From the sequence record NC_041869.1: DNA of 64,000 nt; one strand, written 5' to 3'. This DNA is from Escherichia phage APECc02. Numbering within the stretch: the first letter of the stretch is position 1; each line of letters starts with the position of its first letter. Positions 405 through 58,739 of the stretch are shown here, piece after piece. A program made the position numbers and the translations under genes. Below the pieces are notes generated by a model. That model worked only from the letters and a program-made list of their open reading frames with translations. It made no database searches and was not told the DNA's origin.

Positions 405-481
405 TTCTTTTCGAAAGTTGGCTATGTCCTTAGAATCTTTTAACCACCCGTTATGAACGGGGGCTTTGACAGCTTTCTTTC

Positions 482-1111: not shown

Positions 1112-1443
1112 GCTTCTTCGTCCTCCTCTCCTTCATCAGGAGCGTAAGCCTTATCTTTGAACAAGACGAGAGAGCAAAGCTTAACATCTGTTTCCACACT
1201 GGTGAACATGCATAACCGCTCGCCCTCAATCAGCTCACAATCCTCTTTTAAAACAGCAGACCATACACGGTCATCTGCGTAATCATCCGTGTACAGGATG
1301 TATGAAATGGTGTCATCTTCATACAACCGCCACATACCTGTGGCAACAACGAATGTATTTTTTGTTTTAAGTGTCCCTGTTGTGTGATCATCCTCAAAAA
1401 CAGCTTCCATAATTGCGTTATCTACAGAATTTTTAGTCATCAA
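1108..1443 (-). CDS. hypothetical protein
   Basis: 111-aa ORF, stop overlaps the downstream gene start (operon-like packing); no recognisable motif. Confidence 0.45.
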   Translation of the reverse strand: MMTKNSVDNAIMEAVFEDDHTTGTLKTKNTFVVATGMWRLYEDDTISYILYTDDYADDRVWSAVLKEDCELIEGERLCMFTSVETDVKLCSLVLFKDKAYAPDEGEEDEEA

Positions 1444-2579: not shown

Positions 2580-2880
2580 AGACCCTCCTGTTAGTTATTC
2601 TGCAAGATGGTTGGATGCTGTAATGGAATGCATCATCACTCTCTGCAATAAGTGACTCAACATCCCAATACTTTTCAAAAAGGAACGGATTAGACCCCCA
2701 GTGGTGGGTTATTTTCATCAAGGAGTCTGGTATCATATAACCACAGATCTTAATTACATCGCCAGGTTGAATTGTGTTTTCATGAAGGTTGCTTGCCTTC
2801 TTCAGAATCATACCTTTATGATTCTCGTTTGCATACAACTGGACAATATCTTTATCTTCAACAATAAAAATTTTAAGCAT
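2572..2880 (-). CDS. hypothetical protein
   Basis: 102-aa ORF in the co-directional early block. Confidence 0.45.
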   Translation of the reverse strand: MLKIFIVEDKDIVQLYANENHKGMILKKASNLHENTIQPGDVIKICGYMIPDSLMKITHHWGSNPFLFEKYWDVESLIAESDDAFHYSIQPSCRITNRRVFE

Positions 2881-2939
2881 ACCTAGTTCTCCTAGTTTAT
2901 AGATATCTGACCGATAATATCAGATTAATAACACTTTTG

Positions 2940-3233
2940 TCAAGACTTTTTAGTCTTTCTTGGAGAGCTTTTTGTTGATCTTTTCCTTTTGTGGTAGATT
3001 CCAAGTGCAGCGTTTTCTTGGGCGCACGTTTTAACAGTTCTCAGACAAGAGCTTTCAGCTTTAGGCAGGTTTAACTCCCACCAACCAAGCCAGTAAAGTT
3101 CTGATTCAGACAACTGCTCAGATTCAGCCTTCCGATACAAGGCTTGCATACCTCTGATGATATCGTCCAGAGGTGTATCGAATACAAAAGCTGTCTTATC
3201 GAATTTCTCTTTTACAGATCTCTTAGCCATCAA
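2940..3233 (-). CDS. hypothetical protein
   Basis: 97-aa ORF with a basic Lys/Arg-rich C-terminus. Confidence 0.45.
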   Translation of the reverse strand: MMAKRSVKEKFDKTAFVFDTPLDDIIRGMQALYRKAESEQLSESELYWLGWWELNLPKAESSCLRTVKTCAQENAALGIYHKRKRSTKSSPRKTKKS

Positions 3234-3687
3234 GGTAACCCTCTATCCACGAAAAGTCAGTCTTCCATTCTGGAACTTTACTAAGCTCGCGCCACTCTGC
3301 AAAGCAGTCTCGGTAATACGCCTCTGCCATACCTCTGGTGATCTTATTCACCTTAGCCAACTGATTAACTGCCTGAGCATACTTTCCACGGATATTTGCT
3401 AATCCAGGATGTACCGATGTGTGACAATCTGGGCACAACGCTATCAGTCCGACAAGCCGGATCACTCCCTCTTCGAAAGTGTAAAGTTCATGACACTCCA
3501 CTGGATGTTTGCTGCCTTTACCGCCGCACACCTCGCAAGTGTAGTTTGCCTCTCTGTAGCACTTCTTACGGATCTTATCCCACTCACTCTTCTTCACAGC
3601 GTTTCGGAGGTTATTATACCAAGCTGTTTCTGGGATCAGTTGCACAATAAGCCTGCGTTCAGACCTCATTAAACGTCCGTCTTCCAC
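3223..3687 (-). CDS. Cys/His-rich zinc-binding protein (possible HNH-like)
   Basis: 154 aa; CEVCGG...ECHE...CPDCHTSVH arrangement (CxxC ... H ... CxxCH). Confidence 0.4.
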   Translation of the reverse strand: MEDGRLMRSERRLIVQLIPETAWYNNLRNAVKKSEWDKIRKKCYREANYTCEVCGGKGSKHPVECHELYTFEEGVIRLVGLIALCPDCHTSVHPGLANIRGKYAQAVNQLAKVNKITRGMAEAYYRDCFAEWRELSKVPEWKTDFSWIEGYLDG

Positions 3688-3696
3688 GTATCCCCC

Positions 3697-3918
3697 TTAT
3701 TCAAAGAAATGGGTGCGAGGGCAGGAACCTGCCTCGCCTTGTTTCACAAGCTCGTAGAGCTCACCTTGGCTTGTCTCATAAAGGCAAATACGTTTACCAT
3801 TGTCCCGATACACATCGACAAGATACGCTGTTTCACCTGCAAACACGACACCACAGGCCAGACATGCTGCCATGAACAAAATTGCCAACAGAAAATCTTT
3901 CATGGTTAAACACTCCAT
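3697..3918 (-). CDS. small membrane or secreted protein
   Basis: 73 aa; hydrophobic N-terminal segment (FLLAILFMAACLACGVVFAG), Cys-containing C-terminal part; immediately downstream of the endolysin on the same strand (holin-like position, unproven). Confidence 0.4.
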   Translation of the reverse strand: MECLTMKDFLLAILFMAACLACGVVFAGETAYLVDVYRDNGKRICLYETSQGELYELVKQGEAGSCPRTHFFE

Positions 3919-3966
3919 AACATTTTATGAGGTAACAATACCACGTCCGTGTGGTTATGTCAATGA

Positions 3967-4437
3967 TCAATCCAGGACAATGCCGCCTGCCTTTTTAAAC
4001 ACCTCGATCAACTTCTCGATCTTCTGTTCATGCTGACCATATCCCGCGCCGGGTAACGAAGCCCAGCGGGAACGGCATTTGCGGATAGCTTCGTGGATAC
4101 GCCCTTCGTCAATGTCGGCGAGAGCCTTGCACTCACGGATCAGTTGCAACGCAATCTTGTCCTGACTGGCAGGGCCAAAATCTGGTAATCCTAACTGTTT
4201 CATGTAGTGTTTAGCAAACTTCTCCAAAACCTGGTAACGACCAGCAGCGGAGGAGGTAAGTTTAGCATTTAGCTTAACGTAAACACCTGGATGCTTGCTG
4301 TAATCGCTGAACAGCTTGCCGCCGACTATGACATCGTACCCCCGATCCTTGGTAGGTTGTCTACCATTATCTGTTCCTTCCGAATATGCGATCATATCCA
4401 AGAAAGCTTTTCGTTGAACATTTTTATCAAGTTTCAT
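3967..4437 (-). CDS. endolysin, lambda R-like lytic transglycosylase
   Basis: 156 aa; QRKAFLDMIAYSEGTDNGRQ...GYDVIVGG...AGRYQ...WASLPGAGYGQ closely parallels phage lambda R along its whole length. Confidence 0.85.
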   Translation of the reverse strand: MKLDKNVQRKAFLDMIAYSEGTDNGRQPTKDRGYDVIVGGKLFSDYSKHPGVYVKLNAKLTSSAAGRYQVLEKFAKHYMKQLGLPDFGPASQDKIALQLIRECKALADIDEGRIHEAIRKCRSRWASLPGAGYGQHEQKIEKLIEVFKKAGGIVLD

Positions 4438-4561
4438 TTTTCATACTCTCCAGTTTGCTCATAACTAACCCGATCAACAACACTGCATAGTGTGGTTATG
4501 TAGGTGCCAATTGAAAAACCATCATTCAATTGGCTACCGTTACCTACTAAACCATCCTACA

Positions 4562-5845
4562 TCATTCCAGAACCTCCCAAGTATCTGGGTTAACATTTCG
4601 GACGCAGATACCGACAGGGAATTGGTAGTTGTTGTCTTCTGTCCTTGCTTGATATTTGAAGGTGACAAACTTGCCGATCATTTCCTGCATCCTGTCATAG
4701 CTACGCTCCTCGTGCGTGCCTTTCATCTTCATTTTAACAACAACACCTTCCTTGTCAACACAGATAAGAACACCTTCATCATTCTTATCTTTCTCAACGT
4801 CAATAACTTTCACCTCTGCGTCGTTGAACTTTTTCCATTTCAATGCTTCAGATGTTCGCTGACCATACTCATATTTACCACAGAAGTTACGCATAATGGT
4901 ACCTTCATATCCTTCAGACATAAATATACCAACAGACTCTTCGCACCGATCAACCGTATATGCAAGCTCTGCATCAACAACCTTAATATGATCAAGCATC
5001 AAAGAAGTAATAGCACCGTTTGCCTCCATAAGATCCTTACAGCGACCAGACTCTGTTTCAGGATCCCACCACACCTTATCGCTAGGAATATCGAAAATAT
5101 GATACTCTAAGTCGTAGCTGCAGTACCCTCCGTAACGCAAATCATCACGAACAGGCTCAACATCAACAGGAATGTCCACCTTGTTGAAGTTTTTGTATGT
5201 TGCTAAACCTGCTTTAATCGCAGCCTGACGGCGTTTTTTATCTGCCTTGTAGTCTTTATCGATCTCGGCCTGAATTTCTTCCTGTGTGCGCCACCGTTTA
5301 GCAAGAGACACTATTTTCTGCAGAGGCAGACCATGAATATAGAGCTCTCCGTCGAGCTGTTTAATCCCGGTGGTTAGGTGGAAAGAGCGAAGTTGCTCCA
5401 GAAGCTTTCCTTGAATAGGGTAGGACTTATTACCACGGGAAATAAATTTAGGCTCACCATTCTGGAAAACAACAAGTAGACGAAGGCCATCTAACTTACG
5501 CAAGATCCAGCAAGGTAATTTAAGTGCCTTGCCACGCTTCAGGTAGTCATGCACCAACATGGGTAAAAGATCAACACCTTGCTCACAATCTTCCATACTC
5601 TCCACGTACCCGAGTCGGACCTGTTTTTCCCACTTACTGATCGCTTCCAGCTCGGCCTGTTGCTCAGCTGTAGTTTCATTGGCGCGACCCACGTTCTTAG
5701 GTGTGCAGATCGTCTCTTTGTATTGCAGTTTACCATCAAGCTTGCCAAACTCTACGATAACCTTATCACCATCCGTGAATACTTTCCACTGTTGGTAGCT
5801 GCCATCTTTGTTCAGTGCGTACAGTGTTGTTTTGATTTGATGCAT
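4562..5845 (-). CDS. ATP-dependent DNA ligase
   Basis: 427 aa; nucleotidyltransferase motif I KLDGLR (adenylated Lys), motif IV EGTIMR, motif V LKWKK. Confidence 0.85.
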   Translation of the reverse strand: MHQIKTTLYALNKDGSYQQWKVFTDGDKVIVEFGKLDGKLQYKETICTPKNVGRANETTAEQQAELEAISKWEKQVRLGYVESMEDCEQGVDLLPMLVHDYLKRGKALKLPCWILRKLDGLRLLVVFQNGEPKFISRGNKSYPIQGKLLEQLRSFHLTTGIKQLDGELYIHGLPLQKIVSLAKRWRTQEEIQAEIDKDYKADKKRRQAAIKAGLATYKNFNKVDIPVDVEPVRDDLRYGGYCSYDLEYHIFDIPSDKVWWDPETESGRCKDLMEANGAITSLMLDHIKVVDAELAYTVDRCEESVGIFMSEGYEGTIMRNFCGKYEYGQRTSEALKWKKFNDAEVKVIDVEKDKNDEGVLICVDKEGVVVKMKMKGTHEERSYDRMQEMIGKFVTFKYQARTEDNNYQFPVGICVRNVNPDTWEVLE

Positions 5846-6114
5846 TACTCGGCCTCTTCCTTAAAAATTTTAAACATCTCTTCTTTACTCATTACCAACC
5901 AGTCCCCCATAAAATCAACAAGCCAATCACCCTGGTACAAGACTAGGTTACCAAACGGCTCTACAAGCTCACACATGCGACGAAGATCTCTGGTCCGAAC
6001 AGGTGACGATGTAAACACACCTGTATCAATCCACCGTTGCAGATCAGATACTGATGAAGAGCTTCCGTCAAACTGGTGTGCTTCTACAGGTTTAGCAAGA
6101 TTAAATAACGGCAT
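5845..6114 (-). CDS. hypothetical protein
   Basis: 89-aa ORF, abuts the ligase gene. Confidence 0.45.
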   Translation of the reverse strand: MPLFNLAKPVEAHQFDGSSSSVSDLQRWIDTGVFTSSPVRTRDLRRMCELVEPFGNLVLYQGDWLVDFMGDWLVMSKEEMFKIFKEEAE

Positions 6115-6439
6115 TGCAGTCCTCCTTATCTAATAGATCTTTTATTGGGTAAACAAGCAGGTGTGGATCGTAATAATTTATAGTTTTATTCTGCCACACT
6201 ATGAACTTAATTACAACTAAATTTACCACATCTTTATCTCCATGTAGTCCAACACACAGATTTGTCCATATTTTGTGGTTGAATACTTTGCTGTCGATGT
6301 AGATCTTAGTGTCAAACTTATCCTCTATCCTGCCTATAAGTTTAACCAACTCTTTCATCTGATCCCCAAACACAGCATCGTTTTCAAGATCTCTAGAGTG
6401 CTTGTACATAACTATCTGCCTCACTTGCATACTTTCCAC
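6101..6439 (-). CDS. hypothetical protein
   Basis: 112-aa ORF, overlaps its neighbour by 14 nt. Confidence 0.45.
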   Translation of the reverse strand: MESMQVRQIVMYKHSRDLENDAVFGDQMKELVKLIGRIEDKFDTKIYIDSKVFNHKIWTNLCVGLHGDKDVVNLVVIKFIVWQNKTINYYDPHLLVYPIKDLLDKEDCNAVI

Positions 6440-6472
6440 AACAAGTAAAGCCGGGTAATCCCGGCCATGTTG

Positions 6473-7186
6473 TTAAATATACTCTGCTACATCCTTGAAG
6501 CTCGAAGGCTTCATGATCTTACCTTTACTGTCAAGGAATATGATAACTTTATTACCGTTGTAGAATTCTTCCTTAGCAACAAAACCTTCATATCGACCAT
6601 CAAAGCGTCGCTCAAGATCTTTAATCTCCAACTCTATGAGTTGTTCAGCAGGCATATCTGCACTGGCACCGTGTGAATACCGTAGATGGTTGACCCGTGC
6701 AAACTTGCTGTCATTCGATTTGAGAACCTTACGCATCATCCCGCACACATCGCCGCGAAGCTGGAACAGCAAAGCTGTTGACAACTCCGCTAAACGGTAA
6801 GCTGACGCTCTTTGCTTGGATGTGTTTTTCGCAGCGATCAGTGTGTCATAGAACTCACCGATCTTGAACTTAAGACCTTGTGGATTATCAAACAGGTTTG
6901 ACCACTTTTCGTGATTGTCATTAACAAGATAAGCTGCATAACTTGTGACAACGTGAAGATCGCAGGCCTCCTTTAGCAGGTGATCTCCACCATCACCTTT
7001 CTCCAGCTCTTCCAAAACTTCATTGAACTCTTCCTCAATGAAGCTAAGCTGTAATTCGAATGGTGTGTATGATTTTTTCACTTTAGCTGCCACACGGTTC
7101 CAGTTTTCCACCCAGTTGGCAGACCAAAGGTAGTTTTCAGGTTGGGATAGTTTTTCCAGGTTGTCAATTAATTTAGTATTCAGCAT
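6473..7186 (-). CDS. hypothetical protein, possible MazG-like all-alpha NTP pyrophosphohydrolase
   Basis: 237 aa; EEEFNEVLEELEKGDGGDHLLKEACDLH resembles the EExxE...E..D metal-binding helix pattern of MazG/HisE-type enzymes. Weak. Confidence 0.4.
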   Translation of the reverse strand: MLNTKLIDNLEKLSQPENYLWSANWVENWNRVAAKVKKSYTPFELQLSFIEEEFNEVLEELEKGDGGDHLLKEACDLHVVTSYAAYLVNDNHEKWSNLFDNPQGLKFKIGEFYDTLIAAKNTSKQRASAYRLAELSTALLFQLRGDVCGMMRKVLKSNDSKFARVNHLRYSHGASADMPAEQLIELEIKDLERRFDGRYEGFVAKEEFYNGNKVIIFLDSKGKIMKPSSFKDVAEYI

Positions 7187-7199
7187 TAAAGGTCTCCTT

Positions 7200-7961
7200 T
7201 TAAAGTTCCATAAAGTTTTCTACAGTCTCAATGAATGTTTTATCAGAGAAGGCATCAACCGCACCGTTAAACCAAACTGGGATGCCGCGATCCTCATACT
7301 GGTAAATATCACTACGTGAAATGCCATTCTCCTCTAGATGCTGTGAGTCGTATTTATTAACGATCAGTAGTTTGGTTCCCTTATTGCAGGCAGGGAATAG
7401 CTCCCAGTTAAAATTGATAACTGTGTTGGAGCACCCTACAAGGATAACCATATCATTGCTCGTAAGAGAAGTCAACAGGTCATACATGTCTGTATACTTC
7501 GGAGCTACTTCTCCGAAGAACACCACATTAGGCTTAACCCAGGTATACTTTCCTGCGTCTACCTCAGAGTATCCAATGTCCTTAATGACGTCACTTCCTT
7601 CATCGTCCTCATAGACTATTTCTGGCAAATACCCGTGGACATGTAAAATATCTTCATGTTTTACACCAGCACGCTCCAGCAAATCATCTACATTGGTGGT
7701 AAGGTTGATCACACGACCAGACCAGCGGGAATACCACTCAGCGATCCGAAGATGTGCAAGGTTAGGCTCAACACTGCCTAAAGCTACACGACGTGCATTG
7801 TAAAAGTCATGCACCTTATAGTAGTTCTTGGCAAAGGTGTGGATGTTGCACACCTCATCGATGCTGAAATTCTCCCACATTGCAGTGCTACCAGATCGGA
7901 AAGTGGGAATACCAGATTCAGCGCTCAAACCAGCACCGGAGATAATAATCAGTCGTCGCAT
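7200..7961 (-). CDS. Sir2-family (sirtuin-like) NAD-dependent deacetylase / ADP-ribosyltransferase
   Basis: 253 aa; the three sirtuin hallmark motifs are present: ISGAGLSAESGIPTFRS (GAGxSxxSGIPxFR), TTNVDDL (TQNID-like) and HVHGY (catalytic His-Gly). Confidence 0.8.
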   Translation of the reverse strand: MRRLIIISGAGLSAESGIPTFRSGSTAMWENFSIDEVCNIHTFAKNYYKVHDFYNARRVALGSVEPNLAHLRIAEWYSRWSGRVINLTTNVDDLLERAGVKHEDILHVHGYLPEIVYEDDEGSDVIKDIGYSEVDAGKYTWVKPNVVFFGEVAPKYTDMYDLLTSLTSNDMVILVGCSNTVINFNWELFPACNKGTKLLIVNKYDSQHLEENGISRSDIYQYEDRGIPVWFNGAVDAFSDKTFIETVENFMEL

Positions 7962-7969
7962 AAGTGTCC

Positions 7970-8320
7970 TCAGTAGATGTTTTGTTTAATCTCTATTCCA
8001 AACTTTTTAAACGAGTCAGCTGCAAGCATGAATTTACGAGCCGCTGATGGGTTAGAAGTATGCACGAAAATCTTCACGTTGTCAACTACAGGAGGCTTAC
8101 CAAATACAAATTTTTCCTCTAGGATGCAGAAGCAATCGTATCCTTCAAAAATTTCTCCCAAGTCGCTGTCAAAATGCCACTCAGAAACTCGTCTATAAAG
8201 CTTTCTCTTGTCATTGATGAAATCCATAAACTCAGAAGAGTTCTTCAGCCAAAGAGCATCTTGGAGCCCGTAATTTGACGGATCTCTCAAGTCATCCAGC
8301 CACACAATCAACTTCTTCAT
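7970..8320 (-). CDS. hypothetical protein
   Basis: 116-aa ORF packed between the Sir2 gene and the RNA-ligase-like gene. Confidence 0.45.
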   Translation of the reverse strand: MKKLIVWLDDLRDPSNYGLQDALWLKNSSEFMDFINDKRKLYRRVSEWHFDSDLGEIFEGYDCFCILEEKFVFGKPPVVDNVKIFVHTSNPSAARKFMLAADSFKKFGIEIKQNIY

Positions 8321-9252
8321 TGCATATAGTCCTCGTTGTGGAAATAGTAGTCAAGTATCTCGCGGCGTTCCTGCTCAAGGAGACAGTTCCACACATCTTC
8401 TGTGTAATTGCTACGAATGAAGTTTACCATGCCGTAAAACTCTTCGTCAACACGTTTAAAGATATCCTCATCCCAAATCTTCCAAGCTTTACCTCTCATT
8501 ACGGCCTTCCGTGCCAAATAGTACGGAGACTTGATCTTCAGCTGCAGATCATAAGGGTAGTAAGGCTTACGAATCATATACCCTTCACCTCTTGTTTCTG
8601 CAGCTAATTCTTTTGCATAACTGAACGGAATTTCACGCACAGTGTGAGGACGTTTTGCACCAAGGTATTTGGCAATCCCATCTAAAGCTGCCTCTGGTAG
8701 CATTATTCCAGAATCATTATATCTGCAACCTATCAAATATGCGCCATGATCTTCCTGAACAATATGCGGATCTGAAGGGTGACAAATTTCAAACATGAAT
8801 GTCATGTTTTCATTGCCCATAACCTTCTTGATAAGATCTAAATTACCACATTGCTCCTGGATGGTTTCCTTTGCGAGGTTACAATATGGAGAATCAAGAG
8901 ATCCGGTTGTTGAGAACAATAGTTCACCTTTATGAGAGGATACCACACCAAGGAATCCGTTCTTTTTCTCTACCGCCGTCACAAGCTTATTGTCAGGCAG
9001 GTTGGTGGAGTTTTCTCCCAAGTTAAACACTTTTGTGAAGGGCCATGCCACAACATTTCCTTCATTACCGACAACAATGCCTCGGCACTCCAGTAAACGA
9101 GGGGACAAATGCCATAAATTGTTGTAAAATACTTTTCTGGCATATTTATAGATCTTTAACCCAAGATCCGGGTAATATCTACTGGTTACAAGACCTTTGT
9201 CAACTAGGTCGTCTGCATTAAAATACTTCATCATACGTTCCTCATTTGTCAT
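8317..9252 (-). CDS. putative RNA ligase (covalent nucleotidyltransferase)
   Basis: 311 aa; motif I KKNGF (Kx[DN]G), motif IV EGYMIRK, motif V LKIK; a separate DNA ligase already exists at 4562-5845 and a PNK-like kinase lies next door. Confidence 0.6.
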   Translation of the reverse strand: MTNEERMMKYFNADDLVDKGLVTSRYYPDLGLKIYKYARKVFYNNLWHLSPRLLECRGIVVGNEGNVVAWPFTKVFNLGENSTNLPDNKLVTAVEKKNGFLGVVSSHKGELLFSTTGSLDSPYCNLAKETIQEQCGNLDLIKKVMGNENMTFMFEICHPSDPHIVQEDHGAYLIGCRYNDSGIMLPEAALDGIAKYLGAKRPHTVREIPFSYAKELAAETRGEGYMIRKPYYPYDLQLKIKSPYYLARKAVMRGKAWKIWDEDIFKRVDEEFYGMVNFIRSNYTEDVWNCLLEQERREILDYYFHNEDYMQ

Positions 9253-9295
9253 TTTGTCAGTCTATCCTGCCACACAAATAACCTAGTGTCAACAC

Positions 9296-9324
9296 TTGAA
9301 ATTAACAAAACAGTTAGGTATACT
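9296..9324 (+). promoter_or_regulatory. sigma70-like promoter (TTGAAA-N17-TATACT)
   Basis: Hexamers with 17-nt spacing in the divergent intergenic region upstream of the kinase gene. Confidence 0.5.
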
Positions 9325-9352
9325 ATCGTTGAAATTAAAACGGAGTATTACT

Positions 9353-9763
9353 ATGTCTAAAATGCTATATATCGTGCGTGGTCTACCAGGGTCTGGCAAA
9401 TCAACACTGGCAAATGCGCTATCTTTAGAAGGTCTGTATCCACATTTTGAGAACGACATGTTCTGGTACGACGATGATGGAAATTACAACTGGGATGCAA
9501 GTAAAGTAACACTTGCAGCAAAATGGTGCAAAGATAACGTAGAAGATATGATGCGTATGGGATACGACCGTATCGTGGTAAGTAATACGTTTACAAAAGA
9601 AAAATATGTGCAAGAATATATTGACATGGCGATCAGTCATGGGTATAGTTATACCGTGATCGTGGTTGAAAACCGCCATGGTAATAAAAGCATTCATGAT
9701 GTTCCAGACAGGGTTGTGGATCGTATGGAACGCCAGCTTAAAAATTGCATTAAACTTAAATGA
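9353..9763 (+). CDS. polynucleotide 5'-kinase (P-loop, T4 Pnk kinase-domain-like)
   Basis: Start moved to the ATG at 9353 (GGAG RBS upstream). Walker A GLPGSGKST and IVVSNTFT resemble the T4 Pnk N-terminal kinase domain. Confidence 0.7.
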   Translation: MSKMLYIVRGLPGSGKSTLANALSLEGLYPHFENDMFWYDDDGNYNWDASKVTLAAKWCKDNVEDMMRMGYDRIVVSNTFTKEKYVQEYIDMAISHGYSYTVIVVENRHGNKSIHDVPDRVVDRMERQLKNCIKLK

Positions 9764-9770
9764 GGAATGT

Positions 9771-10325
9771 ATGAAATACTTTGTAACAAGCGACACACAC
9801 TTTCTCCACCAGCGGGTCATGGAGTTCGACTCATGTCAAAAACACAGATCTCAGTATGATCACAATCTTGACAGTATGAATGCGGGAATCATCACCGAGT
9901 GGAACTCTGTTGTGTCACCTGCAGACACTGTGTTCCACCTGGGAGATATTGCGTGCACTAATGATAAGAATATCAACAAATTGCTCCCAGATGTTCTAAA
10001 TATGTTGAACGGACATATTATTCTTGTTCGTGGTAACCATGACACAAGGACGACTGTCAGAATTATGAAAGAGTTCGGTCATGAGGTTGTAGATTATTAC
10101 GAGCTTCGCCACAACAAGAATTTGATCTGTATGAGCCATTACCAGTTTGCAAAGTGGAACAGAAAGCCTCACGGATCAGTCCAACTGTTCGGTCATGCTC
10201 ACGGAACCACACAGCAGTTGTTTGGCAGGCAGTTTGATGTCGGTTGGGATGTGTGGGGGAGACTCTTACCATTAGAAGAGGCATACCGTATTGCAATGAG
10301 TCTTGCTATTGACAGCGGGGAGTAA
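9771..10325 (+). CDS. calcineurin-like metallophosphoesterase
   Basis: Start at the ATG at 9771 (GAGGA RBS). Metallophosphatase motifs SDTHF, GDIA, GNHD and GHAHG. Confidence 0.75.
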   Translation: MKYFVTSDTHFLHQRVMEFDSCQKHRSQYDHNLDSMNAGIITEWNSVVSPADTVFHLGDIACTNDKNINKLLPDVLNMLNGHIILVRGNHDTRTTVRIMKEFGHEVVDYYELRHNKNLICMSHYQFAKWNRKPHGSVQLFGHAHGTTQQLFGRQFDVGWDVWGRLLPLEEAYRIAMSLAIDSGE

Positions 10326-10372
10326 TCCCTGCTATTTTAAAGAAAATTGCCACACAAGGAGAATCAGGAGAT

Positions 10373-10723
10373 ATGAAAGATGGGGATAAGCTGCTATATC
10401 TTAAAGTCCCCCTTGAAATACTGTCTATGTCAAAAGTTTTGAATGACACAACTGGGGAGGTTGTTGTTCTTGACTTGTATGACAAGATCGTATACTGCTA
10501 CCTGCACAACTGGTATAAGCTTGGAGGAAGTTCACGCTTCACACCCAGCACAAGGAAAATTGCAGCAGATGTTGGGATAAAGAAAACAAAAGCAGCAGCG
10601 TGCGTTAAAACTTTAGAATGTGCAGGAGTGGTTGAAATATCCACACAAGGGAGAGGTAAAAGATGCACATTTTCCAAAGTTTTGCCACCAGAAGAGGTTA
10701 TTCGAATGTCAACAACTGGTTAG
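10373..10723 (+). CDS. putative DNA-binding protein (helix-turn-helix-like)
   Basis: 116 aa; segment STRKIAADVGIKKTKAAACVKTLECAGVVEI looks like an HTH/winged helix; gene ends 75 bp upstream of the palindromic repeat array. Confidence 0.4.
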   Translation: MKDGDKLLYLKVPLEILSMSKVLNDTTGEVVVLDLYDKIVYCYLHNWYKLGGSSRFTPSTRKIAADVGIKKTKAAACVKTLECAGVVEISTQGRGKRCTFSKVLPPEEVIRMSTTG

Positions 10724-10798
10724 ACCAGTAAAAACTTAAATATCTGTACTATAAGGATTCGTATGTTTTATGTTCGCTCTGGAACAGAGGTTAGTAAC

Positions 10799-10879
10799 TG
10801 TCCGTGATACGGACACTACTGTCCGTCACGCGGACACATCTGCCCGTAATACGGACACTAACTGTCCGTGATACGGACA
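10799..10879. repeat. array of four 17-bp palindromes TGTCCG-N5-CGGACA at 21-22 bp spacing
   Basis: Copies at 10799, 10820, 10841 and 10863; copies 1 and 4 are identical (tgtccgtgatacggaca), copy 3 has one arm mismatch. Confidence 0.8.
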
Positions 10880-10921
10880 CATAAAGAATATAACTAAAAT
10901 AACTAAATAATAAAAAATAAA

Positions 10922-10981
10922 AGATCTAGTACTTATGGTACTAAGTACATATACTTAACTTATGTAGAATATACTAGATCC
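10922..10981. repeat. AT-rich region with nested inverted repeats
   Basis: agatctagta ... tactagatc flanking inverted repeat, plus internal palindromes agtacttatggtact and gtactaagtac; immediately downstream of the repeat array. Confidence 0.4.
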
Positions 10982-11383
10982 TAAGTACCATGTTTTAAAT
11001 TTATTACTTACTATGGGTAGTGTCGGCCCTTCATTGGCACTCGCCTACGAGGGGCGAGATGCCGGGCCTCCCTGGTGCACACAATAACAGAAGTGCATAC
11101 ATGCAGGTCTGTTAACATGTGTGGGAGCGAAGCGATAGCGCAGGCCAAAGGCCGAGCACTGATGTGGACCACCGACGAAAGCTTGCCAGCGCCGTAAGGA
11201 GTCGGTTGAGAGTCTCCCGCGCGAGCTTGGATGAAGTTTATGTGTGGAAACGGACAAGAAGGCCCCTAAATCGCTCCACAGCTATATAAACTATACCAGG
11301 TAAGGCAATCGCACCAGTTTGATAGAAAAGCTCGTTACAAAGCGATACAGTGAGTTTTTCTATAACTTGAAGAGGAGGTAGTT

Positions 11384-11962
11384 ATGAGTCCACGCAAAGA
11401 TGACCGTGAAAAGATTGCAAAACGTTATCAGAATGAAGAACAGATGGAGAAAACTTTCAAGTGGAAGCCAGGTTTCCAGCGTAATCATTCTAACGCTCGT
11501 GATCGTAAGCATCCGGATAAGTGGTTAACACCGCCAAATGATGGCATTCAGGTTGGTGATGAGAAGGAGCTGTCACCTGGAAAAGATGGCAACTACATTC
11601 GAACTAAGGAAGCAGGTCCAAAGGATGACAGCTATCTTGTAGATAAGGTTCTTGACGGTGTTGATGTAGGTGTTGACACTGTACGAAACCTTTTTCTTGG
11701 TTGGTATCGCACAGGGTTTTTCGACATCAAGGCTATTCGTCGTGTTTGTGATATTAAAAAGTCTGCCTACGATGATGATTCCCTACATCGCACTCTGAGA
11801 CAATACTCAGAGAGATACGGTCATCCAGTTATCACTCTTGACGATATTAACGAAGTTATGTATCATGTAGAGGTTGTTGCAGGTAGGTTCGGTGATGCAT
11901 ATCTCGGTATTCTCTCTGCAAAGGATGAGGTAATGTTAAATAAGATTTACTATGAACGCTGA
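11384..11962 (+). CDS. hypothetical protein
   Basis: 192-aa ORF with GAGGAGG RBS upstream; first gene after the noncoding block. Confidence 0.5.
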   Translation: MSPRKDDREKIAKRYQNEEQMEKTFKWKPGFQRNHSNARDRKHPDKWLTPPNDGIQVGDEKELSPGKDGNYIRTKEAGPKDDSYLVDKVLDGVDVGVDTVRNLFLGWYRTGFFDIKAIRRVCDIKKSAYDDDSLHRTLRQYSERYGHPVITLDDINEVMYHVEVVAGRFGDAYLGILSAKDEVMLNKIYYER

Positions 11963-11971
11963 GGGGCGATT

Positions 11972-12161
11972 AATGAACAATCCGGTAGCAAAGAACTGTA
12001 ATAAATTCAACAAGTCTGCGATTCACACTGACAGGAAAAAGAGTTGGTTTCCTGACATTGACGAGGAGCTTGAGAGTTACTTTGAAGATTTAGTCACCAA
12101 TGCAGAGGAGGTTGCGATTAAAGAATACGCAGACAGGAGGGATAAGGCCGGAATCTGTTGA
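11972..12161 (+). CDS. hypothetical small protein
   Basis: About 63 aa from the ATG at 11972 (GAGGGG RBS); ORF track starts 20 nt earlier. Confidence 0.35.
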
Positions 12162-12186
12162 CAAAAATAATGTTACCTGATAAGAT
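12158..12186 (+). promoter_or_regulatory. sigma70-like promoter (TTGACA-N17-TAAGAT)
   Basis: Perfect -35 hexamer, 17-nt spacer; upstream of ORF 12238-12480. Confidence 0.5.
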
Positions 12187-12237
12187 CTGCAATATGATGT
12201 GATACAATTTTAACTTACGAGGTCTACAGGTAATGCT

Positions 12238-12480
12238 ATGTTTAAGGTTAAGCTCGTTTTTCGTTCCATGAATGAGGATTATTTAGAAGATGAAGGTGAA
12301 TTTCGTGCACTGGATGATGCAATAGATTTTGCCAACGACTTAGCTTGTATGAATACGGGTTATGGGCTATGCTGTTGGGATGGTGGTGTTCAGATCGGTG
12401 ATAGCAAGATCTTCTACTTCTACCCTGAGCCCGATAACAAACAAATTAAGTATGTTTTATTTATTTGTGCTTTACAATGA
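12238..12480 (+). CDS. hypothetical protein
   Basis: 80-aa acidic ORF downstream of a consensus promoter. Confidence 0.5.
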   Translation: MFKVKLVFRSMNEDYLEDEGEFRALDDAIDFANDLACMNTGYGLCCWDGGVQIGDSKIFYFYPEPDNKQIKYVLFICALQ

Positions 12481-12767
12481 GGTTGTTTTCGTGTATCATG
12501 ATGAATATCCAATTTAAAGATGAATTTGATGGCTTTATCTCCGGATGCTTTGAAACAGGGTTCGGAGAAGGCTGAGTTACCCTTAGAGGGCTTGATAGTG
12601 CACCACACTTAAAATGGTAGGGGCAGCCAGCACATGACGATGTGACCCCAGCCAACCTGTAATAAGGTCGAGCCAAAGCGCGGTAATGGGCTCTGGTAAC
12701 CCACTTGTTGGGTCTTGCTGGTCCAGGACGCTGGACAAGTCGCAGGGAATACCACCCTGCGGCGAAC

Positions 12768-12796
12768 TTGACAATCAGTATTTGCTATGATAAAAT
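12768..12796 (+). promoter_or_regulatory. sigma70-like promoter (TTGACA-N17-TAAAAT)
   Basis: Perfect -35 and near-consensus -10 about 30 nt upstream of the ATG at 12826. Confidence 0.55.
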
Positions 12797-12825
12797 CCAC
12801 CTATCACGTGATAATGGAGGAAACA

Positions 12826-13163
12826 TGGCGGATACAACTAAAAAGCGTCGCCGTAGAGGCAGACCTCTGAAAGAGGAGTCCAACGCCATTCAGCTAGAGA
12901 AGAACATCCTTGATATGAAGGAATCTTTTATAGCGATGGTTCCAGAAGCTCACAAAGTTTTAAGAGAGCTGATGTTGGACCCGAAAACCAAACAAAATAT
13001 TCGTCAAAGCATTGCAGAGTATGTTCTTGATAAGGCAGACCGAATGCAGGAAGAATATGATGAGATGTTTGGTGAAGAGGAAGAGGTGGTAGTAGAAGAG
13101 GCTGAAAAACCAGCACCTTTTATGCCATTTACCACAGAAATACAGCCTGTTGGCAATAGTTAA
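12826..13163 (+). CDS. hypothetical protein with basic N-terminus and acidic C-terminus
   Basis: Start moved to the ATG at 12826 (GGAGG RBS); KKRRRRGRP N-terminus, EEEEVVVEE tail. The track's 12705 start would run through the promoter. Confidence 0.5.
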
Positions 13164-13172
13164 AATATTTTC

Positions 13173-13201
13173 TTGACAAACTTTGCTTAACAGTGTAATA
13201 T
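13173..13201 (+). promoter_or_regulatory. sigma70 promoter (TTGACA-N17-TAATAT) for the tRNA cluster
   Basis: Consensus hexamers about 60 nt upstream of the first tRNA. Confidence 0.6.
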
Positions 13202-13259
13202 TGTAAACATGGTCTCCCACCTTTTCTGGCGGCTAAGGTGTAAAAGAAAGCCACCCAGT

Positions 13260-13334
13260 GCCCTGTTAGCTTAGTGGATAAAGCAGCGGCCTTCTAAGCC
13301 GTTGACACTGGTTCGAGTCCAGTACGGGGTGCCA
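13260..13334 (+). tRNA. tRNA-Arg (anticodon TCT)
   Basis: Hand-folded cloverleaf: acceptor gccctgt/acggggt (two G-U pairs), D stem gctt/aagc, anticodon loop cttctaa, T arm actgg-ttcgagt-ccagt, encoded CCA. Confidence 0.75.
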
Positions 13335-13338
13335 AATT

Positions 13339-13425
13339 GGGGAGTTATCCCGTAGAGGTAGCGGTGTAGACTGTAAATCTATTGTCATTGCGACTCGGGT
13401 GGTTCGACTCCACCACTCCCCACCA
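13339..13425 (+). tRNA. tRNA-Tyr (anticodon GTA), long variable arm
   Basis: Acceptor ggggagt/actcccc, anticodon loop ctgtaaa, T arm ggtgg-ttcgact-ccacc, encoded CCA; 87 nt type II. Confidence 0.75.
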
Positions 13426-13539
13426 AATTTACATTTTTAAATGCATAAATCATACAGATAATGGCATTGATATTTATCGTCGTTTATACTAGTCACTAAC
13501 TGCTCGAAAATCAGTGTCATTATCAGTATTGTTTATAAA

Positions 13540-13630
13540 TGAGGGTAGGGAGCAATGGTGCTCAAGCGGTCTTGAAAACCGTCCCGTTGAGGATGACTCG
13601 ATGATGGTTCGATTCCATTACCCTCAGCCA
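13540..13630 (+). tRNA. tRNA-Ser (anticodon TGA), long variable arm
   Basis: Acceptor tgagggt/accctca, anticodon stem-loop gcggt-cttgaaa-accgt, T loop ttcgatt, encoded CCA; 91 nt. Confidence 0.7.
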
Positions 13631-13728
13631 TATTGTTGACCTTGTAATTAAGCGAAAGCCGGAAGCAGAACCGGATTATCAAATGTTACAGTCGTCATCG
13701 CCGACTAGCAACATGGTCAACATACTGA

Positions 13729-13825
13729 GCTAGGTAAGCCCTTTGGCAAGGGCGAGGATTTTTAATCCTGAAAATAGACGAGGTAGTCGTTGAATACATA
13801 GGTGGTTCGATTCCATCACCTAGCA
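13729..13825 (+). tRNA. tRNA-like gene, identity ambiguous (anticodon possibly TTT, Lys)
   Basis: Perfect acceptor gctaggt/acctagc, D stem gccc/gggc, T arm ggtgg-ttcgatt-ccatc, but about 30 nt between anticodon arm and T arm, no position-26 spacer, no encoded CCA. Confidence 0.4.
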
Positions 13826-13832
13826 CCTTTTT

Positions 13833-13908
13833 GCTGATGTAGCACAATTGGTAGTGCAATTGATTTGTAATCAATAGGTTGCAGGTTCGAGTCCTGCTAT
13901 CAGCACCA
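13833..13908 (+). tRNA. tRNA-Thr (anticodon TGT)
   Basis: Acceptor gctgatg/tatcagc, D stem gcac/gtgc, anticodon arm attga-tttgtaa-tcaat, T arm gcagg-ttcgagt-cctgc, CCA; 76 nt. Confidence 0.8.
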
Positions 13909-13909
13909 T

Positions 13910-13984
13910 GGCCCTGTAGCTGGAAGGTTCAAGCAAGCGACTCATAATCGCCAGACGGTGGTTCAATTCCACCCAGGGCCACCA
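13910..13984 (+). tRNA. tRNA with CAT anticodon (Met, or Ile2 read via lysidine)
   Basis: Acceptor ggccctg/cagggcc, anticodon loop ctcataa, T arm ggtgg-ttcaatt-ccacc, CCA. The anticodon arm gcgactcataatcgc resembles bacterial tRNA-Ile2 as I recall it. Confidence 0.7.
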
Positions 13985-13995
13985 AATAATAAATA

Positions 13996-14072
13996 CTCCG
14001 CGTAGCTCAGCTTGGTAGAGCGCCTGATTTGGGATCAGGAGGTCGAGTGTTCGAATCACTCCGTGGAGACCA
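13996..14072 (+). tRNA. tRNA-Pro (anticodon TGG)
   Basis: Acceptor ctccgcg/cgtggag with C1-G72, D arm gctc-agcttggta-gagc, anticodon arm cctga-tttggga-tcagg, T arm gagtg-ttcgaat-cactc, CCA. Confidence 0.8.
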
Positions 14073-14118
14073 CTTTCAGTTATACTTTAAACATATACAA
14101 ACAAAAGGAACCTTTAAA

Positions 14119-14388
14119 ATGTATACACTTAAAATTGTAGAGCGTGTAAATCCAACCCATACTGTAGATTTTCGTGACGATTTCAATCCTCTGGCTGTAA
14201 ATCTTCGAGAGTCATATCATGAACTCAGCTGCGATGCAGTGGTGGTCTTTTTTGAAGACAACTCTGAAGGGGCAGTAGCTTGTGTTGTTGATAGTGAGCA
14301 GAAGTTTTATATTTACAGAGATGTAGATGCATACTTGATGAATGAAAATGCAGTTACTGTTAGAATCATCCACCGAGTGCCTCGATAA
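14119..14388 (+). CDS. hypothetical protein
   Basis: Start moved to the ATG at 14119 (AAGGAA RBS); the track start at 14029 lies inside tRNA-Pro. 89 aa. Confidence 0.45.
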   Translation: MYTLKIVERVNPTHTVDFRDDFNPLAVNLRESYHELSCDAVVVFFEDNSEGAVACVVDSEQKFYIYRDVDAYLMNENAVTVRIIHRVPR

Positions 14389-14440
14389 GTATTAGTCTCC
14401 TTTTAGTTAGTTTCGATCTATTTAGGTTACTCAATTTTAA

Positions 14441-14485
14441 CCCGCCCCGTTAGCTGTATAGCTGTATAGCTGCGGGGTTTTTTCG
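14441..14485 (+). terminator. putative rho-independent terminator
   Basis: GC stem cccgc/gcggg with a large loop holding a gctgtatagctgtatagctg tandem, then a 7-T run. Confidence 0.5.
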
Positions 14486-14501
14486 TTTCTGGAGCCTTAA
14501 A

Positions 14502-14900
14502 ATGATTTCAGTTTTAACATGGCTGAGTAGGTATAGAGGGATCATAAAAGGTTTAGTTTTTGCAGCTGCGCTAGGTACAGCTTATCTTGGGGCCGTATAT
14601 TGGTTTAACTCTAAGCTTAATGAAGCCTACCAAGAGGGTGTGTCAGCAACAGAGTTAAAGTGGGAACGGATCCTTGATCAGCAACAAAAGCAGGCCGACA
14701 AAATTAAAATGGGCCACGCAGAGGAGGTTAAAAACCTTGAAAAATCCCTTTCTGATCTGCAGGATAAATTAAATATGGCTGAGAAGGCAGGTAAAGAAAA
14801 GCAGATTATCTACCTCCAGTCACCTGAAGGCAAGAAGTCAACACTTCCTGATCAGCTTATAGATATTTATAATGAGAGTATCAATCAGGAGGATCAATGA
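14502..14900 (+). CDS. putative i-spanin (Rz-like)
   Basis: 132 aa; single N-terminal transmembrane segment (GLVFAAALGTAYLGAVYWF) then charged coiled-coil-like sequence; overlaps the next gene by 4 nt. Confidence 0.55.
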   Translation: MISVLTWLSRYRGIIKGLVFAAALGTAYLGAVYWFNSKLNEAYQEGVSATELKWERILDQQQKQADKIKMGHAEEVKNLEKSLSDLQDKLNMAEKAGKEKQIIYLQSPEGKKSTLPDQLIDIYNESINQEDQ

Positions 14901-15184
14901 GAGTTGCTACACTGTTTATTGCGTGCTTGTTATTATGTGGGTGTGCAACCAGCGTTGAGAGAGAATACAAGATTGACCCTCCGGATGTAGGAAGGTTGAT
15001 TGTTAAACCCCCGGAAGGTGCCATGAAACCACCTGCTAAAGCTATGCCTTTGAAGAAAGGTGCTCCAGATGCAGTAAATTCTGGCATTATGAGGGATAAT
15101 AATTTGTCTTGTAGCAATGATAGAGCTAAATTGATCATTTTGCAAGACTATATTAGAACACTGTTTCCAAAGGAGAGAGGTTAA
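14897..15184 (+). CDS. putative o-spanin (Rz1-like lipoprotein)
   Basis: 95 aa; signal peptide ending in a lipobox-like LLCGC, proline-rich mature part; stop overlaps the terminase start codon. Confidence 0.55.
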   Translation: MRVATLFIACLLLCGCATSVEREYKIDPPDVGRLIVKPPEGAMKPPAKAMPLKKGAPDAVNSGIMRDNNLSCSNDRAKLIILQDYIRTLFPKERG

Positions 15185-15618
15185 TGTCTAAGATTTCTAA
15201 GATTTACGGACCGTGTTCTGAAAAGCAGAAGATGATCCTCGAAAACGATGCAGATATTTTGGTAATCGGCGGTGCCGCAGGGTCTGGCAAGTCGTTCCTC
15301 TTGCAGTTGATGCCGCTTAAAATTATTGATGACCCACACAGCTCTGTGGTTATGTTCCGAAGAACAACCCCGCAGTTGGAAGGTGAGGGTGGACTATGGC
15401 CTAAAGCAGTAGCTATTTATAGTGATCTGCCTGAAAACATTAAGCCAAAGTTTAGAGAGAAGGATCATAAGTTCATTTTTCCACGGTTTGATCCGAGCAC
15501 TGGCAAGTGGGATAGAAGCAAAAAGGGAGCTGTTGTAAAATACTGCCACATGGAGTATGTACAAGATAAGCTTAACCATCAGGGGCTTGAGTACACCATG
15601 GTTTGCTTCGATGAGGGT
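15184..15618 (+). CDS. terminase large subunit, exon 1 (ATPase N-terminal part)
   Basis: Walker A VIGGAAGSGKSF; ORF stops immediately after the Walker B-like MVCFDEG, with the rest of the protein in another frame about 0.9 kb downstream. Confidence 0.75.
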
Positions 15619-16501
15619 TAATTTGTAGCTCTCGTAAAACCTCCCTAATTGCGGGGAAATCTTTATTATTGACACCACCAACCTGTTATGGTAACATAAT
15701 AGAGGCTTCGAAGAGAGATCGAAGGTATGGTAACAGTGTGTTAATTTAGATAATCCGCAGCGAAGCATCCGAGAGGATGAACGTTCAACGACTAGTCGAA
15801 AGACGTAGAATCAAGCGATTCGAAACGGGAGGGTGAATGTGTAATACTAAAAAATGTATGGATTGCCAAAGAGTTCTGCCTATTGATGATTTCTTTTTAT
15901 CATCTAAGAGCAAGGATGGATACTCAGGTACATGCAAGGAATGCTATATGTACTACAGGAAGGGTGGATCTCGTAAAAACAAAAATATGGTTAAGAGAGA
16001 TGACGCAGCATTGTTTATTCAAGACTTGCTGAAGAAAGGTGAACTTTTTGAATGCAAATCTTGTCATGAAAGTATGCTCGCTGATAGTTTTTACACAAAA
16101 CGTGACTATGGTAAAGTATATCTGGTTACGAACAGGTGTAAGATGTGTGAAAAGTTTTATCAGATTGAGAAGAAATTTCACATAACAAAAGATGAATACT
16201 ATCGTCTACTCTCAGATCAAGATCATAAGTGTGCCATTTGTAGAATATCTCTTAATGAGTATAGGACGCAAGGGTACAGAGATTTCTTTTGTGTTGATCA
16301 TGACCATAAAACTGGTGCTGTAAGAGGGTTGCTTTGTGATAAATGCAACAGAGCTTTAGGTTTCTTCCAAGAAGATGAGGAAACTATTCTTAGAGCGGCA
16401 GAGTATTTACACATTCATAAGATATAGTCTGGTCTGCATGGAGACATGCAGCTGCCTGAAAATGGCGGGGCAAGACTAGCGACCTTGCCCGAACATAAAC
16501 G
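15619..16501 (+). mobile_element. putative group I intron carrying an HNH homing endonuclease
   Basis: Intervening 883 nt between the two terminase parts; proposed 5' exon ends in T (15618) and intervening sequence ends in G (16501); free-standing HNH ORF inside; boundaries approximate. Confidence 0.55.
15837..16427 (+). CDS. HNH homing endonuclease (endonuclease VII-like motif)
   Basis: 196 aa; Cys-rich N-terminal zinc-finger-like region and CVDHDHKTGAVRGLLCDKCNRALG motif. Confidence 0.8.
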   Translation: MCNTKKCMDCQRVLPIDDFFLSSKSKDGYSGTCKECYMYYRKGGSRKNKNMVKRDDAALFIQDLLKKGELFECKSCHESMLADSFYTKRDYGKVYLVTNRCKMCEKFYQIEKKFHITKDEYYRLLSDQDHKCAICRISLNEYRTQGYRDFFCVDHDHKTGAVRGLLCDKCNRALGFFQEDEETILRAAEYLHIHKI

Positions 16502-58623: not shown

Positions 58624-58739
58624 GTGATAACAAGCTGCTGGTTACCCCTGCCTGTCAGTTCAACGCAACTCTTAACGTTGATCCTGCTGTTGCGGCAAAC
58701 TCAGCTAAAGCTTCTGACTTCTCTGTGTCTAACACTGCT

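Follow-up and report, generated by a model that had tools for sequence, protein, structure and literature searches.

A predicted inner-membrane protein encoded among the tail-fibre genes as a candidate holin in the dispersed lysis system of the rV5-like Escherichia phage APECc02

The lysis genes of the large virulent myophage T4 are unlinked: the endolysin gene e, the holin gene t and the spanin genes pseT.3/pseT.2 lie apart from each other, and a census of spanins places the spanin genes, which are separate genes with a stop/start overlap, at a distance from both t and e. The holin gene t is the last gene of the late 34-35-36-37-38 tail-fibre operon, in which it follows a fibre assembly gene. 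The same dispersed layout has been described for the phages rV5, PVP-SE1 and CB7. Here, we analysed a stretch of 64,000 nucleotides from Escherichia phage APECc02 (NC_041869.1; referred to as the window), with a focus on the genes required for host lysis and in particular on the holin. Like T4, this phage is a large virulent myophage with unlinked endolysin, spanin and candidate holin genes. A first-pass annotation of this DNA had called a non-clustered lysis system unusual, which is not tenable for large virulent myophages because T4 and the rV5-like phages share it. The scattering of the lysis genes in rV5-like phages is real, but it has been published before. We propose that the small membrane protein ORF29, which is encoded among the tail-fibre genes, is a candidate for the holin of this system; the genes are named here after their rV5 counterparts.

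The window shows 96-98.6% nucleotide identity to its Vequintavirus relatives inoa, slur16 and rV5. Bases 3000-16000 matched 748 phage records, 110 of them with more than 80% query cover, and the top matches were the Escherichia phages inoa (97.9%) and slur16 (98.6%), Gotham and rV5-type isolates. The source phage is accordingly classed by its sequence as a Vequintavirus, that is, an rV5-like myophage infecting E. coli, and the window has the same gene order as rV5 (NC_011041) in reversed orientation. The published annotations of rV5, LL12, Murica, Gotham, CB7 and PVP-SE1 describe identical genes in an identical layout, with endolysin and spanins recognised, the spanin genes beside the large terminase gene and neither a classic cassette nor an identified holin, and they give ORF29 and ORF31 no role. 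The authors of the rV5 genome paper found no holin homologue and proposed ORF129 on the basis of TMHMM and Phobius predictions. Dispersed lysis genes and no identified holin were likewise reported in the LL12 paper, and a holin was also not identified in the announcement of the Gotham genome. In the CB7 paper, it is pointed out that the spanin genes of CB7, rV5 and PVP-SE1 adjoin the large terminase gene, outside a classic cassette, as is also the case in SP6 and VP4, and that the holin is hard to identify for this reason. The holin proposed in that paper is a Certrevirus-specific protein of 65 amino acids (aa) encoded beside a SleB-like hydrolase. The records of the relatives contain no holin annotation. 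The earlier statement that the window has no clear or canonical holin is thus in line with the literature, in which this absence had already been noted for rV5-like phages; none adjoins the endolysin or the spanin genes.

The endolysin gene (rV5 ORF89; 3967-4437, minus strand) codes for a soluble lambda R-type lytic transglycosylase of 156 aa. A search of the Protein Data Bank (PDB) aligned residues 4-154 with lambda lysozyme (1am7/3d3d, E=1.5e-56). The catalytic SEGT motif is kept, with 'ysegt' aligned to the 'wsegt' of lambda lysozyme, and the protein matches the endolysin family PHROG_90 (E=4.7e-56). The Pfam scan returned no match for this protein, whose identity was settled by the PDB search, and the relatives' records annotate it as lysin or lysozyme. 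As had been noted in the first-pass annotation, the lambda R-like gene lies on the minus strand and apart from the spanin genes; it is located among replication and nucleotide-metabolism genes, its neighbours coding for a DNA ligase, a Sir2 protein, an RNA ligase and an exonuclease. The N-terminus of the enzyme aligns with that of soluble lambda R, and no hydrophobic, transmembrane, signal or signal-arrest-release (SAR)-like segment was found in a Kyte-Doolittle scan, although weak SAR domains can escape such scans. Lacking a hydrophobic N-terminus, the protein is predicted to be a cytoplasmic lambda R homologue that depends on a holin. As the endolysin is soluble, a hole-forming holin would be needed, and ORF29 is the best candidate for this function.

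One might also consider that the phage lyses its host without any holin. Holin-less lysis has been demonstrated experimentally for phage Mu, and no holin has been recognised in the rV5-like group in more than 10 years. However, Mu lyses without a holin because its endolysin is of the SAR type, whereas the endolysin described here starts without a hydrophobic or signal segment and can be aligned from end to end with cytoplasmic lambda R. We therefore regard Mu-style lysis as hardly conceivable for this phage. In addition to the R-type enzyme, rV5-like phages encode a second cell-wall hydrolase, which is SleB-like and adjoins rIIA, a gene present in rV5 (hydrolase at 1980-2480 of NC_011041, outside the window). 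According to the CB7 paper, the SleB-like hydrolase carries a signal peptide and is toxic when expressed. It may provide a second path to murein degradation and would be relevant to any model of lysis. In phage EdH4, a CRISPRi-ART study targeted only the major capsid and rII genes.

The candidate holin ORF29 (55173-55439, plus strand) is a protein of 88 aa and belongs to the phrog_1322/DUF2644 family (match to phrog_1322, E=1.1e-32). It has two weakly hydrophobic predicted helices, which are connected by an acidic loop of six residues, followed by a hydrophilic C-terminal tail, and is predicted to adopt an N-in/C-in topology. ORF29 is similar to class II holins such as S21 of phage 21 in its size, its two putative transmembrane domains (TMDs), one of which is weak, its predicted topology and its hydrophilic C-terminus; it differs from them in that its sequence resembles none of the Pfam holin families. 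Furthermore, S21 is a pinholin that works together with a SAR endolysin, whereas the endolysin partners of the ORF29 family are soluble. The gene is part of the late tail-fibre operon, in which it follows the gene for fibre assembly, with a strong ribosome-binding site (RBS) and gaps of 10-12 nt to the flanking tail-fibre genes, and no sigma-70-like promoter was found near it on its strand. This position is equivalent to that of T4 t, the last small gene of a late tail-fibre operon. There is, however, no sequence relation between the two proteins, and they are built differently: T4 T combines a single TMD with a large domain in the periplasm, and ORF29 is predicted to span the membrane twice, with hardly any periplasmic loop. 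The two phages also differ in their endolysins, which are of the E type in T4 and of the lambda R type here, and in the location of the spanin genes, which abut the terminase gene here.

A profile search of 1.8 billion representative sequences yielded 70 relatives of ORF29, all of which fall within phrog_1322. The Pfam family DUF2644 (PF10841) was reached by 5 of 71 relatives, and many precomputed DUF2644 matches exist; neither ORF29 nor its 70 relatives matched a Pfam holin family, and a literature search on DUF2644 returned no papers. Members of phrog_1322 share the motif SHTKxWSN...T..F / YLGVV....SKFxSLxYG, which is followed by a variable charged tail, and some of them carry an extra N-terminal TMD, giving rise to forms with two and with three TMDs. 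The coexistence of two- and three-TMD forms with variable charged C-terminal tails is typical of holin families.

The evidence that links this family to lysis comes from Mu-like phages. We examined four independent Mu-like contexts, three of them in metagenomic lineages and the fourth in an isolate, Pseudomonas phage Bise. In all four, the genes follow the order Mor, a soluble M15-peptidase endolysin without TMD, the family member, with an overlap of 4 nt, and an Rz i-spanin. The relationship of ORF29 to the proteins in these cassettes was seen in several comparisons. A hidden Markov model (HMM) built from six Mu-like cassette members had ORF29 as its sole significant match among the 627 open reading frames (ORFs) of the window (E=6.7e-14; next best 0.6), and BLASTP aligned ORF29 with cassette members at E=7e-9 and 2e-9, with 35-36% identity and no internal gaps over both helices. 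The cassette proteins P0163 and P0179 and the Bise protein also match phrog_1322, with E-values of 1e-19 to 1e-24. We next counted the neighbours at 80 IMG/VR loci found with the Mu-like sub-alignment, which gave 38 non-redundant upstream and 47 downstream neighbours. Peptidoglycan hydrolases of at least five catalytic families made up about 28 of the 38 upstream neighbours (VanY/M15_4, 14; Amidase_2, 7; M15_3, 4; GH108, GH19 and CHAP, 1 each), and 35 of the 38 had no TMD. On the downstream side, at least 19 of the 47 neighbours matched one and the same Rz-like spanin PHROG, numerous other spanin PHROGs were matched as well, and 30 of the 47 had the single N-terminal TMD that is characteristic of i-spanin topology. 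The Mu-like arrangement is a compact cassette after Mor, whereas in the window the homologue belongs to the tail-fibre operon, at a great distance from the genes for endolysin and spanins.

Phage Mu itself has a SAR endolysin, was experimentally shown to be holin-less and has no phrog_1322/DUF2644 member, which fits a protein that is needed only together with a cytoplasmic endolysin. We also compared Mu gp19, gp20 and gp25 with the family, as membership of any of them would import the negative holin result obtained for Mu; none matched.

Outside the Mu-like phages, the family gene is found in two further settings. In T4-like non-Tevenvirinae phages of the Menderavirus/Busanvirus type it is a solitary gene on the opposite strand, flanked by the DNA polymerase gene and regA/dut, and in all Vequintavirinae it follows the tail-fibre assembly gene. 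Several of the groups that carry the gene are without an identified holin, namely Vequintavirus, the Vequintavirinae member KPP-1 and Menderavirus Ps15, a member of the T4-like group whose paper reports no identifiable holin. In Stenotrophomonas phage Moby, the family gene (6001-6321 of the retrieved locus) is missing from the annotation, which has an ORF of the other strand in its place; a terminator is annotated at its 3' end. Prompted by the position beside gp43 in the T4-like phages, T4 Imm was considered as a relative of ORF29; there was no similarity and no shared motif.

The location of ORF29 in the Vequintavirinae allows for another interpretation, in which ORF29 and ORF31 are inner-membrane accessories of the tail fibres, acting in their assembly or export, or immunity proteins that mask the receptor or block superinfection, and the true holin lies elsewhere or is unrecognisable. 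In all Vequintavirinae, both genes are surrounded by fibre genes, namely the short-tail-fibre paralogues, the gene for fibre assembly and that for the distal fibre, ORF31 is named tail fibre protein in some records, and PHROG places the ORF29 family under "moron/host takeover". Receptor-blocking lipoproteins are often encoded beside phage receptor-binding genes, as is the case for T5 llp and for cor. On the other hand, the ORF29 family is also present in the endolysin-spanin cassettes of Mu-like phages, which are unrelated by their tail fibres, and T4-like phages carry a solitary copy next to the gene for the DNA polymerase. The family is thus not tied to tail fibres. Moreover, T4 provides a precedent for a holin gene inside a fibre operon. 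Taking both sides together, we think that a tail-fibre or immunity function in place of a lysis function is unlikely, although it deserves to be taken seriously.

Several further observations weigh against a holin function of ORF29. Both TMDs fall below the Kyte-Doolittle threshold of 1.5, and the C-terminal tail has a net charge of 0. Even at E<=10, ORF29 matches neither Pfam DUF2644 (PF10841) nor any Pfam holin family, the full PHROG category of phrog_1322 is "moron/host takeover: membrane protein", and the Center for Phage Technology left the ORF29 homologues of LL12, Murica and Mydo as hypothetical proteins. The gene lies about 51 kb from the endolysin gene and about 40 kb from the spanin genes, amid tail-fibre genes, a position that a role in fibre assembly, receptor interaction or superinfection would likewise account for. 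The family member in the Mu-like cassettes could be an antiholin or another accessory protein rather than the holin. Finally, the holin role of phrog_1322/DUF2644 is derived from sequence and gene context, and the authors of the rV5 genome paper favoured a different protein. Balancing these points against the conservation of the family in endolysin-spanin cassettes, we consider it about as likely as not that ORF29 serves as the holin, or at any rate as an inner-membrane factor essential to lysis.

If ORF29 has this function, lysis could proceed as follows. ORF29 would be co-transcribed late in infection with the tail-fibre genes, just as T4 t follows gene 38, and would build up in the inner membrane in an N-in/C-in orientation until it triggers and forms holes. 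The holes would let the endolysin reach the murein, and, after degradation of the murein, the spanin would fuse or disrupt the outer membrane. ORF31 could tune the timing of lysis in this process. More broadly, we tentatively suggest, at somewhat less than even likelihood, that phrog_1322/DUF2644 is an overlooked and widespread holin family, which serves Vequintavirinae (rV5, PVP-SE1, CR3 and phi92/phAPEC8-like phages), T4-like Menderavirus/Busanvirus phages and Mu-like phages with cytoplasmic endolysins, with the ORF31 family acting in Vequintavirinae as an analogue or very remote homologue of releasin.

The protein favoured in the rV5 genome paper is ORF129, a protein of 78 aa encoded at 94058-94294 in rV5, about 22 kb beyond the endolysin gene and outside the window. 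If its homologue were the holin, ORF29 and ORF31 would be unrelated to lysis. Both TMDs of ORF129 are strongly hydrophobic, its C-terminus is rich in Lys/Arg, and the protein is conserved in 114 Vequintavirus records. However, topology was the sole basis of the proposal, and this topology is ambiguous because the loop (RRKVK) and the tail are both basic. ORF129 corresponds to phrog_10061, to which no function has been assigned in PHROG, and matches no holin family. The gene is one of a series of small genes throughout which sigma-70-type promoters are annotated, is confined to one genus, in which it is unusually divergent (54-100% identity), and is not associated with lysis genes anywhere. For these reasons, we consider it improbable that ORF129 is the holin.

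The first-pass annotation had listed three small hydrophobic ORFs as holin candidates, and a Pfam scan of all three matched no holin family. While 55173-55439, coding for ORF29, has gained comparative support, the likeness of the product of 53714-54028 to the Mu releasin is architectural only and 3697-3918 is the least holin-like of the three. The ORF at 53714-54028 (plus strand) codes for ORF31, a protein of 104 aa that belongs to phrog_5345, again without an assigned function in PHROG. It has an N-terminal TMD (residues 5-23, flank charges -2/+4), and the next 80 or so residues are predicted to form a coiled coil. ORF31 is thus predicted to be a membrane-tethered cytoplasmic protein with an N-out/C-in topology. 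In Seunavirus, Certrevirus, Henunavirus and Mydovirus, homologues of ORF31 and ORF29 flank a polytopic membrane protein, phrog_7451, and this block of three membrane-protein genes stands after the tail-fibre assembly gene. The phrog_7451 proteins have 128-157 aa and 4-5 TMDs (for instance 1812-2285, 1908-2294 and 6209-6610 in the retrieved loci). In the window, the place of phrog_7451 is occupied by a duplicate short-tail-fibre paralogue (54118-55161).

The Mu-like cassettes (endolysin, DUF2644, Rz/Rz1, DUF2730) share with the window not only the ORF29 homologue but also an ORF31-like architecture, as they too hold a protein with an N-out/C-in TMD and a coiled coil, which falls in or near DUF2730. 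DUF2730 is the family of the Mu gp25 releasin, which has an N-terminal TMD in N-out/C-in orientation and a cytoplasmic helical domain of about 100 aa. The N-terminal TMD, the N-out/C-in orientation and the cytoplasmic helical part of ORF31 agree with this architecture. Homology of ORF31 to the DUF2730 releasins was rejected, as Pfam, hhalign, BLASTP and HMM comparisons were all non-significant, and only the architectural analogy was kept: none of 11 ORF31-family members matched PF10805 at E<=10, hhalign of the ORF31 family against DUF2730 gave probabilities of 0.7-1.9%, BLASTP of ORF31 against gp25 gave 24% identity over 78 aa with a non-significant E-value of 0.04, and the best match of an ORF31-family HMM among 4156 ORFs from Mu-like loci had an E-value of 0.12. 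ORF31 also differs from the Mu releasin in its setting, as the phage is non-transposable and the gene for ORF31 is part of its tail-fibre operon. By analogy, ORF31 may be an antiholin-like or releasin-like partner in lysis, which is the weakest link of the model.

Beside the endolysin gene, where a canonical holin was looked for, the sole small neighbour is the gene for ORF90, a small, probably exported protein of 68 aa (3697-3903, minus strand). All ORFs named in the first-pass annotation were found at the coordinates given there, with the exception of this start codon, which is most likely the ATG at 3903, preceded by a GGAG RBS, and not that at 3918. The N-terminus of ORF90 is very hydrophobic and has a lipobox, FMAA|C, at Cys14 (hydropathy and PROSITE-type pattern), and the remaining 45-55 aa are acidic and contain 2-3 Cys residues. 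From these two features, ORF90 is predicted to be periplasmic, either exported or lipid-anchored. The gene is preceded by a promoter-like sequence of the sigma-70 type, TTGACA-17-TATTGT, which is close to consensus, and the rV5 record annotates a P90 promoter; having its own sigma-70-like promoter, ORF90 would be expected to be expressed early. ORF90 corresponds to phrog_4641, which has no assigned function in PHROG, and its distribution, 118 records, covers Vequintavirus only. It has no Pfam match and no PDB relative at E<=10; a relationship to solved structures, for example that of T4 Spackle, was accordingly rejected.

Could ORF90 nevertheless form a minimal two-gene cassette with the endolysin, as its holin or antiholin (3697-3903/3918)? 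It is small, is encoded directly downstream of the endolysin gene and has one very hydrophobic N-terminal segment, and the upstream regions of both genes have the sequence ACATAACCACAC in common. However, the hydrophobic N-terminus is a predicted signal peptide with a lipobox and the acidic remainder points to the periplasm, there is no basic cytoplasmic tail, the strong sigma-70-like promoter suggests early expression, and the protein is confined to one genus, without family or structural relatives. A holin or antiholin function of ORF90 is therefore very unlikely in our view. Instead, ORF90 is probably an early exported lipoprotein, and one might speculate that it acts, for instance, in superinfection exclusion.

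The exact 12-mer ACATAACCACAC occurs twice on the minus strand, and the two copies bracket the endolysin gene. The copy at 3949-3960 lies within the promoter-like site preceding ORF90, and the copy at 4490-4501 lies in a promoter-like region about 50 nt upstream of the endolysin start; no third exact copy is present within the window. The 12-mer may serve both genes as a regulatory site, or it may have been left behind when a cassette was inserted.

The spanin genes are located on the plus strand just upstream of the terminase gene, as had been noted before, and the overlaps between these genes can be read directly from the sequence. The i-spanin (rV5 ORF67; 14502-14900) matches the Rz-like spanin family phrog_4297 (E=7.5e-50) and the o-spanin (rV5 ORF66; 14897-15184) the Rz-like spanin family phrog_1267 (E=1.8e-22), and both are annotated as i-/o-spanin in inoa and A51.2; the spanin census lists the rv5 i- and o-spanin families. 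The i-spanin has one N-terminal TMD (residues 14-32) with an N-flank charge of +3, consistent with an N-in orientation, and a charged helical periplasmic domain. The o-spanin is a predicted outer-membrane lipoprotein with the lipobox LLCG|C at Cys16, followed by Ala at position +2; the mature protein has 80 aa and is proline-rich (9.5% Pro). Examination of the pair for a TMD and a lipoprotein signal by pattern-based prediction thus bore out the earlier assignment. The o-spanin has one more periplasmic Cys (Cys72) and the i-spanin has none; according to the spanin census, at least one periplasmic Cys is required for a homotypic disulfide. The two genes are joined by an ATGA overlap at 14897-14900, and the o-spanin stop codon overlaps the start of the large terminase gene as TAATG. 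The spanin pair heads the packaging/structural operon, and its translation is coupled to that of the large terminase. About 20 nt ahead of the i-spanin start, at 14441-14484, a GC-rich hairpin is followed by a T-run (CCGCCCCG...CGGGGTTTTTT). Given this terminator-like hairpin, the spanin-terminase operon would be either read through or started just after it.

With regard to the overall layout of the window, the genes at positions 1-9300 on the minus strand have functions in replication and nucleotide metabolism (exonuclease, DNA ligase, Sir2, RNA ligase). They are followed on the plus strand, from about 9300 to 60000, by a regulator, a non-coding stretch, a tRNA cluster, the spanin genes, the terminase gene, which is split by an intron/HNH insertion, the head and tail genes and the tail-fibre locus. 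The non-coding stretch is an ORF-free region of about 660 bp (10724-11383), at which transcription diverges and the cumulative GC skew turns, and for which the only annotation in phage inoa is a repeat_region. It contains four tandem repeats of 21-22 nt at 10795-10880, each with the palindrome GTCCGTnnnnCGGAC. These repeats resemble iterons or operators, and the array is a possible origin or regulator-binding site. The cluster of seven tRNA genes (13260-14072) includes a tRNA-like gene of 99 nt (13729-13827), for which ARAGORN reports an anticodon of four bases (atcc), and which is annotated as 'tRNA-OTHER' in inoa and is not among the tRNAs listed for rV5. This gene may code for a tRNA with an intron, for one resembling a frameshift suppressor or for a degenerate one. 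The large terminase gene is in two pieces (15184-15621 and 16535-17623), with an ORF for an HNH homing endonuclease (15837-16427) inserted between them. The split agrees with reports of introns in rV5 and LL12; in phage A51.2, the terminase gene is unbroken (1548 nt). Downstream of the gene for the 586-aa tail fibre, the window departs at 57258-59930 from rV5, in which a single Ig-like protein of 1878 aa is encoded. Here, two overlapping ORFs (57258-57695 and 57574-58623) and one ORF of 401 aa are found, and the overlapping pair is possibly the result of a frameshift or a split gene. The distal fibre genes of Vequintavirinae vary allelically, which fits this difference.

Taken together, the dispersed layout of the lysis genes adds nothing new, as it has been published and has a precedent in T4; it is the holin assignment that would matter. 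What is new is a specific holin candidate that can be tested and whose family is not linked to lysis in the annotation of any source. Phages of the rV5-like group are among the commonest coliphage isolates and are used in therapy and biocontrol cocktails, and specialists have repeatedly reported that a holin could not be identified in them. With ORF29 as a candidate that is tied to the endolysin-spanin cassettes of unrelated phages, this gap becomes a simple question of cloning and complementation. If ORF29 and its relatives are indeed holins, several hundred phage genomes would be annotated at once, and a holin family with two-TMD and three-TMD forms would be added to those already described.

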